64,000 bases of DNA from an uncultured Spirochaetota bacterium (GTDB lineage: Bacteria > Spirochaetota > Spirochaetia > SZUA-6 > Fen-1364). The notes under the pieces were generated by a model, which saw nothing but the letters and a program-made list of their open reading frames with translations, had not been told where the DNA came from and made no database searches. This document shows positions 521 to 64,000 of the stretch, one piece after another. The position numbers were made by a program, and so were the translations under genes. The stretch is taken from assembly GCA_963734545.1 (NCBI GenBank), contig CAVTHO010000009.1, forward strand, positions 96,001-160,000. The letters are read 5' to 3'. How positions within the stretch are numbered: position 1 is the first letter of the stretch; each line of letters opens with the position of its first letter.

Positions 521-4018
<3,498 letters not shown>

Positions 4019-22202: not shown

Positions 22203-22257
22203 ATTTCGCAGCGCGGGCGCTTGATTTCCCCCGCTGACAGTTGCACTATTGGCATGG

Positions 22258-24312
22258 ATGCCCATGACGCGTAAGGCAGCGGAGAAGCGGGCCGCCGAGC
22301 TTTCCCAGCTTCTCAGGGAGTACCAGCGTGCGTACTACGTCGAGAGCCGTCCGCTCGTCTCGGACAGCGAGTTCGACGTTCTGTTCGATGAGCTGCTCGC
22401 CATTGAGCAGGAGCACCCGGATCTCGCCCTTCCCGATTCCCCCACGCGGCGTGTCGGCTCAGACCTCACCCAGGAGCTTCCCGAAGCGGCGCATACCATC
22501 CCCGTTCTCAGCCTGGATAAGTCCTACACGGGAGAGGAGCTCGCGGCGTGGACCGCGAAAACCGCCCGCAATGCCGGCGAAGAGCTTTCCTTCGTCTGCG
22601 AGCAGAAGATAGACGGTGCGTCCATGGTCCTTTACTACGAGGAGGGAACCCTGGCCCGGGCTGTGACCAGGGGCAATGGCCTCGTGGGCAATGACGTCAC
22701 GGGGAACGTGAAGACCATCGGCGCTGTCCCGCTGCGCCTCGCCCAGCCCGTGACGGTCGCGGTGCGCGGGGAGGTATTTCTGGCGCACAGCCTTTTCGCA
22801 TCGATCAATGCGAAGCTGGATGAGCCATATGCCAATCCGCGCAACTTCGCATCCGGAACGCTGCGGAGGGTCAAGAGCAGCGAGGTGGCGGGAGTTCCGC
22901 TCAGCATCTATGTATACGAGGGCTTTTTCGAGAAACAGCCGGACACGCACCACGAGATACTGGAGCAGCTCGAGGATCTCGGTTTCCGCCTCAACCCGCA
23001 CGTGGGATTCTTCTCGGACGGTCCGTCGCTCTCATCGGTGAAAAGCCGGCATCCGGCCTGGCGCACCGGGTCCCTGAAGGATATCCCCGACTTCCTCGAG
23101 GCTGAAAGAAAGGGTCGCAGGAGCCTGGACTACGAGATCGACGGAATCGTGGTCAAGGTGGACGAGGTTTCCGTCCGTGAGAGGCTGGGGTACACGGGCC
23201 ACCATCCCCGCTGGGCAATCGCGTTCAAGTTCGAGTCTCCCGAGGGGGCCACGACCGTCAAGGCAATCGAGGTCCAGGTGGGCAGGACGGGGAGAGTCAC
23301 TCCCGTGGCTCGGGTGGAGCCGGTCAAGATCTCGGGCGCCACCATCGCGAATGTCACGCTGCACAACCAGGAATACATCGACATGCTCGAGCTGGCCGTG
23401 GGAGACCGGGTGGCCGTCTCGCGCAGGGGTGACGTCATTCCCGCGGTGGAGCGGGTGCTGGAAAAGAACGAGACGGGCGCCGCCACCTGGAAGCTGCCCG
23501 AATCCTGCCCGACGTGCGGAACGGGGCTCGTGAAGCAGGGCGCGCATCATTTCTGCCCCAACGCGGCCTGCCCGGACCAGGTGCGGGGCAGGCTGAATTT
23601 TTTCGTCGGCAGGGGACAGATGGACATCGAGGGACTCGGTCCGGAAACCGTCGATGTGCTCATCAAGAACGGATTGGCGCGTGATGTCGATGACCTATAC
23701 TTTTTCGATCCTGACAAGCTTCTGGATCTCCCTGGATTCGGAGAGAAGAAAGTGGCGCAGATCAGGGAGGGAATCGAGAAGAGCAAGGAGCAGCCATTTC
23801 ACGTCGTGCTTCCATCGCTCGGGATTCCCGACATCGGCCAGAAAGTGACCGAGCTTCTGATCGAGGCCGGCTACACGGGAATCGATTCACTGGTCGCGCT
23901 TGCCGCGGCGGGAGACCCCGCGCCGTTTCTGGCCATCCACGGAATCGGCGAGCGCACGGCAGAGATCCTGATGCGGGAGCTGCGAAAGAAGGGGATGAAG
24001 CGGCTCATCGAGAGACTGCGCAAGGCGGGTCTGAACCTCGAGGAAAAGGCGCAGCCGCAGCGCGCGGACCTGCCGCAGACGTTTGCCGGCCAGACCTGGT
24101 GCGTCACCGGCAGCTTCGCCAGCTTCAGCCCCCGCGAGAAGGCGATGGAAGAGGTGACCCTGCGGGGCGGAAAAGCGGTTGATTCGGTGACGTCGAAAAC
24201 CACACACCTGTTAGTCGGCGGGAGCCCCGGGAGCAAGCTGCAGAAGGCGCAGAAGCTCGGCGTCAAGATCGTGAATGAAGACGAGTTTCTCGCGCTGCTT
24301 CGGAAGTCTTGA
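22258..24312 (+). CDS. ligA: NAD+-dependent DNA ligase
   Basis: EQKIDG adenylation motif, TRGNG, YANPRN, PRWAIAFKF, CPTC zinc finger, C-terminal BRCT. Confidence 0.98.
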   Translation: MPMTRKAAEKRAAELSQLLREYQRAYYVESRPLVSDSEFDVLFDELLAIEQEHPDLALPDSPTRRVGSDLTQELPEAAHTIPVLSLDKSYTGEELAAWTAKTARNAGEELSFVCEQKIDGASMVLYYEEGTLARAVTRGNGLVGNDVTGNVKTIGAVPLRLAQPVTVAVRGEVFLAHSLFASINAKLDEPYANPRNFASGTLRRVKSSEVAGVPLSIYVYEGFFEKQPDTHHEILEQLEDLGFRLNPHVGFFSDGPSLSSVKSRHPAWRTGSLKDIPDFLEAERKGRRSLDYEIDGIVVKVDEVSVRERLGYTGHHPRWAIAFKFESPEGATTVKAIEVQVGRTGRVTPVARVEPVKISGATIANVTLHNQEYIDMLELAVGDRVAVSRRGDVIPAVERVLEKNETGAATWKLPESCPTCGTGLVKQGAHHFCPNAACPDQVRGRLNFFVGRGQMDIEGLGPETVDVLIKNGLARDVDDLYFFDPDKLLDLPGFGEKKVAQIREGIEKSKEQPFHVVLPSLGIPDIGQKVTELLIEAGYTGIDSLVALAAAGDPAPFLAIHGIGERTAEILMRELRKKGMKRLIERLRKAGLNLEEKAQPQRADLPQTFAGQTWCVTGSFASFSPREKAMEEVTLRGGKAVDSVTSKTTHLLVGGSPGSKLQKAQKLGVKIVNEDEFLALLRKS

Positions 24313-55386: not shown

Positions 55387-56337
55387 GTGCCAGGCGGTCA
55401 TGAACGGGAAAGCGCGGGCCACGCCTCCGCGGTACGGGCCTACTACGAGAGCAACACGCGGCTCTTTCTTGCGCTCGGCATCGGCAGGCGGACGCTCGCC
55501 ATCCGGCGGGCCGTGTGGGCGGATGGGGTGGATGATCTCGCCGCGGCCGTGAACTACGTAAACGGCCTTGTTGCGGCCGAAGCGAGGCTGGCCGCGACAA
55601 AGGACGGCGCGCTTCGGATTCTCGATATCGGCTGCGGTGTCGGAGGCAGCCTGCTCTTCCTTGCCGGCGCGGTGAATACGCCGCTCCAGGGGATCGGCGT
55701 CACCATCAGCCCGCGGCAAGCCGTCATTGCACGAAGACAGGCGCGCATCCGGGGGCTTTCCTCAAGGTGCTCTTTCATCGCGGCGGATTTCGCGCGCCTC
55801 ACCGGTCTTCCCCGGTTCCCTCTCTCCTTCGCCATCGAGTCATTCGTCCATTTCACCGCGCCGGCAGAGTTCTTCACCGCGGCGGCAAGATCGCTTGCGC
55901 CGGGAGGACGTCTGATGGTGATCGACGATTTCCTCGCCGGTGACCGGCATTCGCCCAGGGAACGCGGGCTTGTCAGTGCCTTCCGGCAGGGGTGGCTTCT
56001 GCCTTCGCTCTGCACGGTCAGGCGCGCGGTCCAGTGCGGCGCTGAATGCGGCATGCGCCTGGTGGAAGATCGCGACCTGAGCAGTTTCCTTTCCCGAAAA
56101 CCCGCAGGCTCGCGGATAGGAAAACCCGCAGGCTCGCGGATGGGAAAACCCGCAGGCTCGCGGATGGGAAAACCCGCAAGCTCGCGGATGGGTTGGTGGG
56201 CCGTGCGCGTCATGCGCGCGCTTCCCGTGCCGTGGCCTTACTGGAGAAGCACGATGGGAAGCCTCGCCCTGGAAGCCTGCAGGCGGGCAGGGCTGGTCGA
56301 ATACCATGTCCTCGTGTTCGAGAACCAGCGGGCATGA
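55387..56337 (+). CDS. SAM-dependent methyltransferase (sterol/tocopherol MTase-like) with repeat insertion
   Basis: VRAYYE, ILDIGCGVGG, GVTISPRQ, AIESFVH, LAPGG. Confidence 0.82.
   Translation: MPGGHERESAGHASAVRAYYESNTRLFLALGIGRRTLAIRRAVWADGVDDLAAAVNYVNGLVAAEARLAATKDGALRILDIGCGVGGSLLFLAGAVNTPLQGIGVTISPRQAVIARRQARIRGLSSRCSFIAADFARLTGLPRFPLSFAIESFVHFTAPAEFFTAAARSLAPGGRLMVIDDFLAGDRHSPRERGLVSAFRQGWLLPSLCTVRRAVQCGAECGMRLVEDRDLSSFLSRKPAGSRIGKPAGSRMGKPAGSRMGKPASSRMGWWAVRVMRALPVPWPYWRSTMGSLALEACRRAGLVEYHVLVFENQRA
56096..56191 (+). repeat. 24-bp tandem repeat x4 (coding VNTR, KPAGSRMG)
   Basis: GAAAACCCGCAGGCTCGCGGATGG x4 with only two substitutions. Confidence 0.95.
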
Positions 56338-59586: not shown

Positions 59587-60216
59587 CTACAGCGAGCGGC
59601 AGAACCGGACCATCTCCCGAACCGCCTCGGCCATGTTCTGCGCGTACGTGCGGCCTGAGCTCTTGCGCGGCTTGAACGAGTGGTCCCCGTCTTCCAGATA
59701 TGCCACCCGAATCGCGGCAGACAGCGTGTAGCCGGCAATCTCCTCCCGGGTCCCGAGCGTATCCCGGGTGCCCTGAAGGATAAGCGTGGGGGTCTTGAGA
59801 TCCTTCAGGTGCGCCACTCGAAGACTGGCCGGTCTTCCCGCCGGATGAAACGGGTAGCCCAGGCAGACCAGACCTTTCACACCGAGCCCGTCCGCCACCA
59901 TGCTGGCAATCCGTCCACCCATCGACCTTCCGCCAATCACCAGCTCTGACGGCGAGCCGAGCTGATCCACGACGCCGGCCCAGCAATCCTGCAGCACCTT
60001 CGGCGCATCAGGGGCGGTTCTCCTGCCCGTCTTTCGAAACTCCTGCATGTAGGGGAACTCGAACCTGATCACTTGAATGGACTCACCGACCAGCGCGTGC
60101 GCCATTTCTTCCATGGGCGGAGAGTCCATGAGCGACCCGGCTCCGTGCGCAAGAACCACGCGCAGCCAGGGCTTCCCGGCTTCCGGGGTGTCGATCAGCA
60201 AAGGTACAGTACTCAC
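59587..60216 (-). CDS. Alpha/beta hydrolase (KANL3/Tex30-like)
   Basis: LAHGAG, FEFPY, GGRSMGG, LGYPFHP, QGTRD, DGDHS; GGAGGAGG RBS. Confidence 0.88.
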   Translation of the reverse strand: MSTVPLLIDTPEAGKPWLRVVLAHGAGSLMDSPPMEEMAHALVGESIQVIRFEFPYMQEFRKTGRRTAPDAPKVLQDCWAGVVDQLGSPSELVIGGRSMGGRIASMVADGLGVKGLVCLGYPFHPAGRPASLRVAHLKDLKTPTLILQGTRDTLGTREEIAGYTLSAAIRVAYLEDGDHSFKPRKSSGRTYAQNMAEAVREMVRFCRSL

Positions 60217-60280: not shown

Positions 60281-62245
60281 ATGGCTATTGAAGAATATCG
60301 CCGCAAAAGAGACTTCAGCAAAACACCCGAACCCGAACCGGGAAAGCTGGACGTCGGGGGAAACAGGTTCGTCGTCCACCGGCACGAGGCGCGCAACCTC
60401 CACTATGATCTGCGGATCCAGGCGGGAGGGGTCCTGTCCTCCTGGGCCGTGCCGAAAGGATTCTCATACGATCCGGTGGACAAGAGGCTCGCGGTAAGGA
60501 CCGAGGATCATCCGCTCGAGTACACGAGCTTCGAGGGGGCCATTCCGCGCGGCCAGTACGGCGCCGGTACGATGCGCATCTGGGACGTCGGGGAATACGA
60601 GGTGCGGAAAGCCCCCGACATCCATAGAGCAATCGAGAAGGGAGAAATCAAGCTCGAGCTGCGGGGCCGGCGATTGCGCGGGGAATGGCACATGGTGCGC
60701 ACCAAGGGGGGCGAAGGCAGGGACTGGCTGCTTTTCAAGGCCCGGGATCGCTACGCCGGGTCCGGTAGCGACTTGTTCGGAGGCGCGGACATGAGCCGGG
60801 CAATCCAGAGACCGCCGCTCGGCAGGATTGCCCGAATGGAAGCCTCGCCCTGGCCGCTGCCCTTCGATGACCCGGACTGGCTTTTTGAACCGGCGCTGGC
60901 AGGGAAGCGCGTGCGCGCGTCGATCGACGGCCCTTCGGTCAGCATCCGGGCCGGGGCGGAAGACCTTGCCCCGGAGCTGCCGGCCGTTGTGGCGGATCTG
61001 GGGAAAATACGCGCGGAGACGCTGCTCTTCGATGGTGTTGTCGTCACGGGCGAATCAGCGCCTGTTCTGTACGTCTTTGACGTGCTCTACGCCGAAGAAT
61101 GGGACCTGAGGCAGCTCGCGCTCCGGGAGCGCAAGGCCGTCCTCCGTTCGCTCCTGCCGGACCTGAAATGCGTATTCCGGGTCGACCCGGTGGCCGAGCG
61201 CGGCTCGGCGCTCGCACAGGCAGCCGCCGAATCGGGGCTGTCGGCGATTCTGGCCAAGCGCGCGTCGAGCAGATATCAGGCAGGACTCTCGGAGGACTGG
61301 CGGCACATACCGGTTACCGCGGCAAAGACCCGGAACCAGGCCAGGAAGCCTCCCCGCCCGGCCGAGTTTGCAATAACGAATCCCCGCAAGGTGTACTGGC
61401 CCGAGCAGGGATACACGAAAGGGGACCTGCTGGCCTACTACGAGCTGACCGCGGGCTGGCTCCTCCCTTACCTCAAGGACCGCCCCCTGCACATGTACAG
61501 GTGGCCGGATGGAATACGGGGCAAGTCGTTCTATCAGAAGCAGCTCCCCGAGGGAATTCCCGACTGGATCGAGACGGTGGATGTCGCCAAGGCTGGCGAG
61601 GAGCCGACGCACTACATCGTCTGCAACGACCGAAGGACGCTGCTGACCCTCGTGAACCTCGGGACCATAGACATTCATCCCTGGCTTTCCCGCAGGGGCA
61701 GCCTCGATTCTCCGGACTGGGCGATCCTCGACCTGGACCCCAAGGAGGCTCCATTCTCGAATGTGATCAAGGTGGCGCGCGTCGTCGGCAAGCTCCTGCG
61801 GGGGCTCGGCCTCGAGGCCTACCTGAAGACTTCCGGCTCCACCGGGCTGCACGTCTGCATCCCGTTGAAGCCCGGCTACACCTACGAGCAGAGCCGCATG
61901 TTCTGCGAGGCCGTTGCGCGGCTCGTTGTGCGGGACCATGGTGACATCGCGACCGTGGAGCGCGTCATGAGCCGTCGCGGGGGCCGGGTCTACGTGGATT
62001 TCCTTCAGAACCGAAGGGAGCAGACGGTCGTCCCGCCGTACGTGGTGCGGCCGGTGGAAGCTGCGTCGGTCTCGATGCCGCTCGCCTGGGACGAGCTCGA
62101 AGGGGAGCTGCGCATCGAGGACTTCACGCTGGCCACGGCACCCGCGCGCATCGAGAAGACGGGAGACCTTTTTCGCACTGCCCTCGGCAAGGGGCAGGAT
62201 CTTGCGGGGGCCATCGAAGCCCTGGCGCGTTCCCTCGAGGCCTGA
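60281..62245 (+). CDS. ligD: LigD-like NHEJ protein: phosphoesterase + degenerate ligase + polymerase
   Basis: PE: YRRKRDFSKTPEP, HEARNLHYDLR, EDHPLEY; POL: ITNPRKV, LDLDP, KTSGSTGLH, YVDFLQN; ligase motifs mutated. Confidence 0.9.
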   Translation: MAIEEYRRKRDFSKTPEPEPGKLDVGGNRFVVHRHEARNLHYDLRIQAGGVLSSWAVPKGFSYDPVDKRLAVRTEDHPLEYTSFEGAIPRGQYGAGTMRIWDVGEYEVRKAPDIHRAIEKGEIKLELRGRRLRGEWHMVRTKGGEGRDWLLFKARDRYAGSGSDLFGGADMSRAIQRPPLGRIARMEASPWPLPFDDPDWLFEPALAGKRVRASIDGPSVSIRAGAEDLAPELPAVVADLGKIRAETLLFDGVVVTGESAPVLYVFDVLYAEEWDLRQLALRERKAVLRSLLPDLKCVFRVDPVAERGSALAQAAAESGLSAILAKRASSRYQAGLSEDWRHIPVTAAKTRNQARKPPRPAEFAITNPRKVYWPEQGYTKGDLLAYYELTAGWLLPYLKDRPLHMYRWPDGIRGKSFYQKQLPEGIPDWIETVDVAKAGEEPTHYIVCNDRRTLLTLVNLGTIDIHPWLSRRGSLDSPDWAILDLDPKEAPFSNVIKVARVVGKLLRGLGLEAYLKTSGSTGLHVCIPLKPGYTYEQSRMFCEAVARLVVRDHGDIATVERVMSRRGGRVYVDFLQNRREQTVVPPYVVRPVEAASVSMPLAWDELEGELRIEDFTLATAPARIEKTGDLFRTALGKGQDLAGAIEALARSLEA

Positions 62246-62262
62246 GCCCGGCCCGGACCGGG

Positions 62263-63474
62263 TCAGTCGTCCGGATCGTCCCTCCCCTTGTACCTGATCA
62301 GGGTGAGGTGCATCTCGCTAGGAAACGCTTTGAGGCATTCCGCTCGATGAGGGAGCGCCTTGTCGTGCTGACCCGTGCGGGAGAATATGATTGCGAGATT
62401 GCAGTGCGCATCCGGATAGCGGGGCTCGAGGGACAGCGCGGTCTGGTAGGCATGGATCCCCTCGTCATGCTTGCCAATTGCCACCAGGCAATTGCCCAGA
62501 TTGTTCCACGCCTCCGCGAAACCACGATCGGCATCGATAGCCTGCAGGTAACGCTCCGCCGCGTCCGCCTCGCGTCCCAGCTCGTAGAGAACATTTCCGA
62601 GGTTGAAGAGCGTTTCCGGATCTGGTTCCGCTTCGAGGGCCCGGCGGTACGCATCCGCTGCCCGCTGAAGATCGCCGCGCTCCTCGGCCTCCACCGCCTC
62701 GGAAAACCACCGGCTGTGGCTCTGGTCGCCTTCCGGGAAGATGGACACGCGGGGAGATGTCATCTCCCGCTCCGTGTCGAAATCCATGAGCCTCTGGCCG
62801 CTGGGCTCGGCCCAGCCTCCATCCAGCAGCCGGATGCGCAGCCCGCTGTCATACGCCTCGAGACGCCCGGCAATCTGTTCTCCATCCGGCACCCACTGGG
62901 CGATCTCGGAGAGGCTCTGGCGCAGCAGCGCGGTGGAGACTCCGGATGCCGTCAGCCGGCCGAGGTTGCGCGCAAGCAGGATGTCCTTGAACTCGAACCA
63001 GGCCAGCCGATTGGCCACGCGCGCGGGAGGGAGCAGCCCTCGGCGCATCCAGCTGCGGACCACGGAAAGGGGCTCGTCCACGATGCGGCCCACCTGGGCC
63101 GCGGTGTACATTCGGGAGATATCGCTCAATTCTCCTTCGGCGCCGATCAAGGCCAGGAACTCGGCCTCGTCCACCAGCCGTATGGGTGCCCCCTGTTTCT
63201 TCAGCTCGCGGAAGCGCAGCATGTTGCGCGCAATACCCCCGTCCGGCGTGAAGTGCCCCGTTGCCTGGCCCGCTATGAGAAGCTCCGTGGTGGTCCCTGG
63301 CTCGCGCACGGGGCGGCCGCCGGCCCGGGTGATCCGCTGGACCGCCTCTGCCCTGTCCATGGAGACCAGACGACCGGTGAGCGCCACTTCCCTGCCGGCG
63401 AGCGATTCCTGAGGCGGCACTTTTTCCCTGCGCGGTACCCCGCGCATTTCTTCTTCCGTCACGACGTCAGGCAT
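62263..63474 (-). CDS. BRCT + MerR-type HTH + TPR protein
   Basis: LAGREVALTG...GG...IRLVDEAEFLALIG (BRCT); YTAAQVGRIV...VRSWMRRGLLPP (HTH); LFNLGNVL, AWNNLGNCL, AHCNLA (TPR). Confidence 0.85.
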   Translation of the reverse strand: MPDVVTEEEMRGVPRREKVPPQESLAGREVALTGRLVSMDRAEAVQRITRAGGRPVREPGTTTELLIAGQATGHFTPDGGIARNMLRFRELKKQGAPIRLVDEAEFLALIGAEGELSDISRMYTAAQVGRIVDEPLSVVRSWMRRGLLPPARVANRLAWFEFKDILLARNLGRLTASGVSTALLRQSLSEIAQWVPDGEQIAGRLEAYDSGLRIRLLDGGWAEPSGQRLMDFDTEREMTSPRVSIFPEGDQSHSRWFSEAVEAEERGDLQRAADAYRRALEAEPDPETLFNLGNVLYELGREADAAERYLQAIDADRGFAEAWNNLGNCLVAIGKHDEGIHAYQTALSLEPRYPDAHCNLAIIFSRTGQHDKALPHRAECLKAFPSEMHLTLIRYKGRDDPDD

Positions 63475-64000
63475 CCAGAAGCCCCTCGAACACGGGTGCG
63501 CGAAGCAATCCCGCTGAGGTGAGCTCAGCGAAGCTTACCGCGCAGAACAGGCCCGGCTCAACCCACCTCGCGCGTTCAGGGCAGGACACGAGCGGCGTGT
63601 CTCTCGGCCGCTGTCTCAGGAGCGTGTTGATCCTTTCGCGGACCCCTTCGGTGAAGCCGCCCCCCACTCTCCCGACATAGCGAAGCGCACCTTCCTGCTC
63701 TCCGGGAAGGCCGTTGCTCGCCACGAGCAGGCTCTGGAAGTCATCGCCATCCTTCTCGATATATCCGATGATGGCAACGTGGACCTGGAGCCGCCGCTTG
63801 AACTTCACCCAGGCGCCGTTGCGCTTTCCCGCCGCGTATGTGCTGGAGAGGCGCTTTGCCACGACTCCTTCAAGGCCCTGCTCGCAGGCCATCCGGTACA
63901 GCATCTTTCCTTTGGCGCGGACCCCTTCTGAAAGAATCACGCCCGGACACGGGGAATCCTTCATGATCTCTTCGAGGACCCCGCGCCTTTCGGAGAACGG
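63467..64000 (-). CDS. Stand-alone ATP-dependent DNA ligase, C-terminal part (runs off right edge)
   Basis: GLEGVVAKRLSSTY, WVKFK, OB domain YVGRVGGGF...WVEP...LRAPVFEGL; frame open to window end. Confidence 0.88.
   Translation of the reverse strand, partial: PFSERRGVLEEIMKDSPCPGVILSEGVRAKGKMLYRMACEQGLEGVVAKRLSSTYAAGKRNGAWVKFKRRLQVHVAIIGYIEKDGDDFQSLLVASNGLPGEQEGALRYVGRVGGGFTEGVRERINTLLRQRPRDTPLVSCPERARWVEPGLFCAVSFAELTSAGLLRAPVFEGLLDA

Follow-up and report, generated by a model that had tools for sequence, protein, structure and literature searches.

The 64,000-nucleotide window analysed in this work (positions 96,001 to 160,000 of contig CAVTHO010000009.1, assembly GCA_963734545.1, from an uncultured Spirochaetota bacterium) carries close to its end a gene whose product joins a BRCT domain, a MerR-type winged helix-turn-helix (HTH) and a set of tetratricopeptide repeats (TPRs), and which is flanked by genes encoding a stand-alone ATP-dependent DNA ligase and a LigD-like protein. 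The window is otherwise an ordinary piece of chromosome with rpoB, the genes of ribosomal proteins L10, L1 and L11, recG, dnaE and ligA. The codon-position G+C content of the BRCT–HTH–TPR open reading frame (ORF), 0.71/0.47/0.78, matches that of the real genes of this 65% G+C window, and the closest relatives are Spirochaetota metagenome-assembled genomes (MAGs). The original prediction, made from the sequence alone, had described an N-terminal domain resembling the BRCT tail of the window's own LigA, followed by a MerR-like HTH and about four TPRs, and had proposed that the protein is a DNA-binding scaffold or regulator of a multi-component end-joining complex. The features of the locus are collected in Table 1.

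Both statements of that prediction about the position of the gene agree with the sequence. Its ATG (63474-63472) overlaps the 3' end of the ligase gene, whose stop codon is at 63469-63467, by 8 nt (ATGCCTGA); if the alternative start M10 (63447) were used, a gap of about 20 nt to the ligase gene would replace the overlap. At the opposite end the gene converges on the LigD-like gene, both stop codons being separated by a spacer whose inverted repeat may serve as a shared terminator. The AlphaFold model of the full-length protein had a mean predicted local distance difference test score (pLDDT) of 85.1 and a predicted template modelling (TM) score of 0.79.

Table 1. Features of the BRCT–HTH–TPR gene and its neighbours in the 64,000-nucleotide window
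Feature	Position	Strand	Evidence
Whole BRCT–HTH–TPR gene	62263..63474	-	ATG-initiated ORF, 403 aa; full-length homologues; AlphaFold model
BRCT domain, aa 25-112, predicted RFC1/LigA class, pocket residues T33, G34, R41	63139..63402	-	Profile vs PDB; Foldseek; pocket conservation
MerR-type winged HTH, aa 122-192	62899..63111	-	Pfam MerR_1; model elements
Short helix 198-209 and conserved linker motif, aa 193-232	62779..62898	-	Conservation; pLDDT 50-55
Variable spacer, aa 233-250, predicted disordered	62725..62778	-	pLDDT <50 at 230-247; majority fraction 0.23; length-variable in alignment A1
Four TPRs and capping helix, aa 251-394	62293..62724	-	Pfam TPR families; model helices; Foldseek
Stand-alone ATP-dependent DNA ligase, 3' half	63467..64000	-	PF01068, PF04679; TIGR02779 NHEJ ligase domain, E 2.4e-37; runs off window end
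LigD-like gene, start ATG 60281, convergent with the BRCT gene	60281..62245	+	PF13298, E 4e-41; PF21686, E 4e-87
Spacer between convergent stops, 17 nt, GC-rich, short inverted repeat	62246..62262	.	Read from sequence
Abhydrolase_11 gene, divergent from the LigD-like gene	59590..60216	-	PF20408, E 6e-73

The likeness to the LigA tail could be traced directly and exceeds what chance would give. The strings FAGQTWCVTG and KIVNEDEFLALL are located in the window's LigA (22249..24312, + strand), at 24082 and 24265, respectively, and LAGREVALTG is located at 63402 on the minus strand. A single BLASTP comparison of aa 1-120 with residues 598-684 of this LigA, its Pfam BRCT region, gave 27% identity over 103 columns (E 1e-7), and a hidden Markov model (HMM) of the protein family matched the LigA BRCT at 24058-24300 with an E value of 8e-6. 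In NCBIfam the BRCT-bearing C-terminal region of PRK06195 was matched at E 8e-8, while phmmer with the single sequence gave weak matches to the BRCT chains of Escherichia coli LigA and RFC1. Pfam reported no BRCT in the full-length protein of the window; among its relatives, the cut-off of PF00533 was exceeded in 6 of the 11 scanned (27.5-38.7 bits), and precomputed PF00533 assignments were present on 4 of 120 close homologues.

The alignment of 70 N-terminal-domain sequences (A2), used as a profile against the PDB, matched the RFC1 BRCT structures 2ebu (E 2.5e-9) and 2k6g (E 2.9e-9), E. coli LigA 2owo (E 3.3e-9) and the BRCT of Thermus thermophilus LigA (E 2.3e-7), and more weakly the BRCTs of TopBP1, ligase IV and PARP1. 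Pentatricopeptide repeat proteins stood at the top of the same table, but these were discarded, as they were sums of sub-threshold repeat matches in which no single stretch passes. Foldseek with the full-length model returned TPR matches only, and aa 17-120 were also modelled separately. The resulting model (pLDDT 74.2) has the predicted order strand-helix-strand-strand-helix-strand-helix, which is that of BRCT domains and is repeated in the full-length model. The top 50 Foldseek matches of this model in the PDB were all BRCTs, the best being RFC1 (E 4.8e-6, TM 0.59), with LigA also among the leaders; those of XRCC1, Lig3 and Lig4 were weaker (E 2e-3 to 4e-3). By profile and by structure alike, the N-terminal domain has a BRCT fold, and it falls in the class of RFC1 and LigA.

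The BRCT of yeast Rfc1 accommodates a DNA 5' phosphate in a site made up of T166, G167, R174 and K209 (PMC9359705). In the profile alignment T33, G34 and R41 of the window protein are in register with Rfc1 T166, G167 and R174, with identical +1/+8 spacing, and they are kept in 63, 70 and 57, respectively, of the 70 aligned BRCT sequences.

The central domain was predicted as MerR-like, which was borne out by a match of aa 123-189 to PF13411 (MerR_1) covering profile positions 1-67 of 69 with 28.7 bits, the cut-off being 21.6. In the model this region is composed of helices 125-131 and 136-144, strands 152-154 and 157-161 and helices 162-176 and 181-191, and as a single sequence it gave weak matches in the PDB to GlnR (E 0.23) and CarH. 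In regulators of the MerR family the HTH is N-terminal and leads into a long dimerisation helix that forms an antiparallel coiled coil. In this protein the HTH comes after the BRCT domain, and the next modelled helix has only 12 residues (198-209), unlike the long coiled coil of MerR. This short helix belongs to a linker (aa 193-232) that is conserved like the folded domains (majority fraction 0.59) and modelled with low confidence, as is the whole stretch from about 210 to 250; R215, G219, G226, Q227 and F232 are kept in at least 90% of 65 sequences. A search of the BRCT–HTH–TPR protein with PADLOC gave only a weak match of the HTH (mad1, E 1.5e-4), and there is therefore no sign in it of a defence system.

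As for the C-terminal part, Pfam TPR_1, TPR_2 and TPR_11 matched at aa 254-384 with E values from 1e-20 to 3e-22 (3e-22 for TPR_1), and eight paired helices were predicted at 252-382, equivalent to four TPRs and thus to the number first estimated, with a capping helix at 387-394. In Foldseek, consensus TPRs (TM 0.93 on target), the TPR domain of OGT and MamA were among the matches to the whole-protein model. Six asparagines of the repeats (N291, N294, N324, N325, N328 and N359) are kept in at least 90% of the sequences. In OGT a ladder of asparagines in the TPRs binds peptide backbones, and the Foldseek comparison likens the repeats of this protein to TPRs that bind peptides, OGT's among them. 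A separate observation concerns the C-termini of the Ku proteins from 49 loci of both phyla (e.g., L001:8115-9098), which share a short motif containing Ala-Pro-Ser, preceded by lysine and followed by a Lys-rich end; this motif is a candidate TPR ligand.

The protein belongs to a large family. More than 120 full-length homologues with 53-91% identity were found among 866 matches, largely in Spirochaetia MAGs, and where the source names them they are mostly called 'TPR repeat protein'. Residues 1-250 matched 990 cluster representatives at E <= 1e-3, 429 at E <= 1e-10 and 68 at E <= 1e-30; most of the top 150 representatives are 370-430 aa long with the matching region at the N-terminus. The relatives scanned with Pfam have the same BRCT-MerR-TPR order as the window protein. 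Conservation is nearly even along the protein (majority fraction 0.55-0.59), the poorly modelled linker included, and aa 233-250 are its sole variable part. Shorter two-domain proteins with BRCT and MerR but without TPRs also exist and are automatically named as regulators. One sequence, P0232, looked like a fusion of ligase and BRCT; it was rejected, since its middle and junction resemble out-of-frame ligase and its BRCT part has its own Met, and it is probably a read-through in an error-rich assembly. Full-text literature searches found no paper on the BRCT-HTH-TPR architecture or on an NHEJ (non-homologous end joining) accessory protein of this type, and PMC9226535 deals with PolX only. The initial remark that a characterised protein of this architecture was not known agrees with those searches, with the addition that databases already tag BRCT+MerR proteins automatically; the combination is therefore catalogued, though not studied.

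To place the gene in its genomic context, homologous loci were surveyed with one genome per species. Of 518 candidate stretches 475 were confirmed, and the best 80 loci, fetched with ±10 kb, were analysed; by record title they comprise 25 with names beginning in Spirochaet, 47 of Planctomycetota type, 6 unclassified and 2 Alcaligenaceae. Genes were called crudely by codon-position GC, all 1232 proteins were clustered, family representatives were identified with Pfam, and HMMs built from the neighbour clusters were run on the six-frame ORFs of the 80 loci. In the clustering, which included the window, the commonest families after that of the BRCT gene itself were three: the stand-alone ATP ligase had 51 loci, Ku had 49 and the LigD-like protein had 34, and the next family reached 10. 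By HMM, the ligase lies directly upstream of the BRCT gene (<250 bp, same strand) in 51 of the 80 loci and Ku, with no ligase between, in 4, so that the BRCT gene is immediately behind one or the other in 55; anywhere in the locus, Ku was detected in 53 and the LigD-like protein in 39. At least one end-joining gene is present within 10 kb in 61 of the 80 loci, and in all 25 of those labelled as spirochaetes. In the window and in many loci the gene either overlaps the ligase gene, start on stop, or follows it within a few nucleotides, and the adjacency extends over two phyla with protein identities of only 33-45%. The linkage to NHEJ genes contained in the original prediction is thus found well beyond this locus.

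Because the window breaks off within the ligase gene, it shows neither ku nor the ku promoter. L001, the nearest relative with 90% identity over 380 columns, has ku directly upstream of the ligase gene (Pfam Ku, E 3e-43). A FastTree phylogeny of 79 sequences, from which L040 and L046 had been dropped as frameshifted, placed the copies without linkage to NHEJ genes nested among the linked ones, with at least seven label changes forced by well-supported branches, and for this reason the linkage looks ancestral and repeatedly lost. In the same tree the two Alcaligenaceae-labelled loci (L034 and L079) nest among Planctomycetota sequences and are possibly mis-binned contigs. The position of the gene behind Ku or the ligase in many spirochaetes and planctomycetes suggests an extra component in break repair.

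The enzymes encoded beside the gene form a split set. The LigD-like protein of the window consists of a 3'-phosphoesterase, a degenerate ligase nucleotidyltransferase and a primase-polymerase, its polymerase and phosphoesterase modules being supported also by TIGR02778 and TIGR02777; in Pfam its match to PF01068 is partial and below cut-off, and no OB-domain was matched. In the ligase HMM alignment the adenylation motif I (Lys-x-Asp/Glu-Gly) is intact in all 46 alignable stand-alone ligases, a count that rests on orthologous full-length ligases, as the window copy ends before the motif. Among the LigD-like proteins, the window copy included, it is intact in none of the 32 alignable, 31 having no lysine and one having the lysine but no acidic residue. 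The active ligase is thus physically separate from the end-processing modules across the loci, and motif content indicates a conserved arrangement of 'pseudo-ligase LigD plus stand-alone ligase'. A ligase without a fused polymerase or phosphoesterase domain needs another route of recruitment. A complex prediction between the L001 ligase (A3) and the L001 BRCT-HTH-TPR protein (A4) scored 0.00 against a mark of 0.32, was run without controls and weighs neither way.

The upstream regions of ku were inspected in the spirochaete loci. A conserved TTGACT-N17-TAGCTT-like promoter was observed 31-126 nt upstream of ku (L001-L019, L040, L046 and L057; e.g., L003 at ~3680-3810). TTGACT was found at a distance of 17 nt from TAnnnT in 15 loci and of 18 nt in one, that is in 16 of the 20 spirochaete loci with enough upstream sequence, and the sequence of the spacer is variable and non-conserved. 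Promoters activated by MerR proteins have an over-long spacer of 19-20 bp which holds a dyad operator; neither such a spacer nor a dyad was seen at the promoters upstream of ku, the only ones examined. By sequence, the ku promoter appears to be of standard type, which argues against classical MerR-type activation. Downstream of this promoter, several loci have a long, GC-rich leader that contains inverted repeats; Rfam had no match to the leader of L003.

Other genes of the neighbourhood were also recorded. The Abhydrolase_11 gene adjoins the LigD-like gene in 18 of the 80 loci, 17 of them spirochaete. In 12 of the 25 spirochaete loci a gene for a protein of ~1136 aa with PD-(D/E)XK nuclease, RNase H-like and superfamily 1 helicase domains (e.g., L003:11916-15323, minus strand), which is absent from the window, separates the BRCT gene from the LigD-like gene. 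PADLOC gave for the protein helicase-type matches only, such as MkoA, and it could be a further end-processing component. Elsewhere in the window, a methyltransferase-domain ORF (55387..56337, + strand) contains several tandem 8-residue units similar to Gly-Lys-Pro-Ala-Gly-Ser-Arg-Met near its C-terminal end (~56080-56210).

The reading that we prefer, with a probability of roughly 0.45, is that the BRCT–HTH–TPR protein is a conserved, end-binding accessory subunit or adaptor of a split, multi-component NHEJ machine. In such a machine Ku would bind the break, the BRCT of the RFC1/LigA class would grip the 5'-phosphorylated end or a nick by means of its Thr-Gly...Arg pocket, and the MerR-type winged HTH would bind the duplex next to the end. 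The linker, conserved despite its low model confidence, and the kept asparagines of the TPRs behave as binding motifs do; the linker motif together with the four TPRs would hold a peptide of a partner, be it Ku, the stand-alone ligase or the LigD-like protein, and the sole catalytically competent ligase would in this way be brought to ends processed by the phosphoesterase and polymerase of the LigD-like protein, whose own ligase domain is predicted to be dead. As regards the DNA-binding scaffold or regulator that had been proposed at the outset, the two points on which it could have failed, the BRCT fold and the enriched association with NHEJ genes, both stood; scaffold and regulator alike fit these results. 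The three domains, the kept pocket residues, the operon position, the conserved linkage and the split ligases are observed, and from them we infer the binding of ends, the docking of a partner and the recruitment.

Several results weigh against an end-binding adaptor. With PF00533, aa 1-120 of the window protein scored 15.1 bits (E 0.027), below the cut-off of 21.3. The possible equivalent of Rfc1 K209, R/K83, is present in only 41 of the 70 BRCT sequences and its placement is ambiguous, because an insertion of about eight residues precedes helix 2. Forms of the protein with MerR and TPR regions but without BRCT are encoded in L027, L029, L037, L053 and L062, at no fewer than three places on the tree; they start 3-18 nt after the ligase gene, still behind it, and the BRCT is therefore not strictly required. 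No NHEJ gene was present in the fetched sequence of 19 of the 80 loci (18 labelled as Planctomycetota and one unclassified), two of which have less than 1.2 kb of upstream sequence, and no alternative neighbour common to these 19 was found. The protein therefore persists off the operon, which would suit a trans-acting regulator equally well. The survey percentages themselves come from the best loci of one genome per species, scored with neighbour HMMs built from the same 80 loci, and are descriptive rather than genome-wide. Finally, to our knowledge all the characterised proteins of the MerR_1 family are transcription factors, and automatic cluster names label relatives of this protein as 'MerR family transcriptional regulator'.

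These points lead to the main rival, a serious one though less likely in our opinion than the adaptor, in which the protein is a transcription factor of the end-joining operon and possibly of other genes; its HTH would bind an operator, its BRCT would sense DNA ends or a phosphorylated ligand and its TPRs would oligomerise or bind a co-regulator. A MerR_1 score above the Pfam cut-off, together with an HTH no less conserved than the other regions, is what such a factor would show, although the HTH is central instead of N-terminal and the long dimerisation helix of MerR is missing. The gene sits in an operon open to autoregulation, but it is the third of that operon and is translationally coupled to the ligase gene, and the ku promoters of the 16 spirochaete loci have the 17-bp (once 18-bp) non-conserved spacer with no dyad seen. 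The unlinked copies, being nested among linked ones with repeated changes, are as expected for a trans-acting factor, and the BRCT+MerR proteins that have no TPRs carry regulator names; against this, the Thr-Gly and Arg of the 5'-phosphate pocket of the DNA-end-binding class of BRCTs are retained.

A dual role, in which an end-sensing factor acts at breaks with the NHEJ enzymes and also alters the transcription of repair genes when ends are present, could draw on the evidence of both single-role readings, as modules for end binding, DNA binding and peptide binding are joined in one protein and the gene persists both linked and unlinked; no datum demands both roles, and we regard this compromise as improbable. 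Most improbable is a role outside end joining, for example in binding the nucleoid or nicks generally or in the service of a different repair route, with a merely historical linkage to ku and the ligase: it would fit the 19 unlinked loci and the nearest BRCT relatives, LigA and RFC1, whose sites of action are nicks and primer junctions and not double-strand breaks, but the adjacency is kept across two phyla despite the low protein identity, and no other neighbour family is common to more than 10-12 loci.

If the adaptor reading is right, its consequences would reach beyond this locus. Teaching presents end joining in bacteria as minimal, with the two proteins Ku and LigD, and the abstracts of PMC7969030, PMC5124664 and PMC6379672 describe it as Ku and LigD only. 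Bacteria would then also build scaffolded multi-subunit end-joining machines, with a third, non-catalytic component present in two phyla and a split between active ligase and pseudo-ligase. The protein would offer a tractable model for a single BRCT domain reading DNA ends, and a family comprising several hundred sequence clusters (the 429 representatives at E <= 1e-10), whose sole annotation at present is 'TPR repeat protein', would gain a role. More doubtfully, the four proteins found in spirochaetes and planctomycetes, namely Ku, the stand-alone ligase, the dead-ligase LigD-like processor and the BRCT-HTH-TPR protein as a dedicated break-end adaptor, might form an end-joining machine in which the RFC1-type BRCT clamps the 5'-phosphate end and the TPRs hold the tail of a partner; the adaptor would then be an independently arisen functional counterpart of the eukaryotic BRCT scaffolds.

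Comparison with known systems situates the protein among several of them. With the canonical pair of Ku and multidomain LigD the locus shares Ku, an NHEJ-type ATP ligase, a 3'-phosphoesterase and a primase-polymerase in a conserved neighbourhood, and it differs in that the ligase is separate, the LigD-like protein has no motif I and a third or fourth conserved gene is present in the operon. With MerR, CueR, BmrR and the short forms GlnR and TnrA the protein shares a winged HTH matching MerR_1; here, however, the HTH is internal, a long coiled coil is missing, TPRs replace the effector-binding domain and the ku promoter spacer is of 17 bp. RFC1/p140 and LigA resemble it in fold, in detectable homology, in having a single and not a tandem BRCT and in the Thr-Gly and Arg spacing of the pocket, and differ in the absence of the insertion of about eight residues before helix 2 and in bearing a clamp loader or a ligase where this protein bears HTH and TPRs.

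BRCT scaffolds organise the ligase complexes of eukaryotes. The likeness to XRCC1-ligase III and XRCC4-ligase IV lies in the functional idea only, a non-catalytic BRCT-bearing protein associated with a ligase at breaks. Homology is confined to the BRCT, and the eukaryotic ligases have a BRCT of their own whereas the ligase of this locus has none. The closest BRCT relatives of the protein described here belong to the DNA-binding RFC1/LigA class, and not to the protein-binding class.

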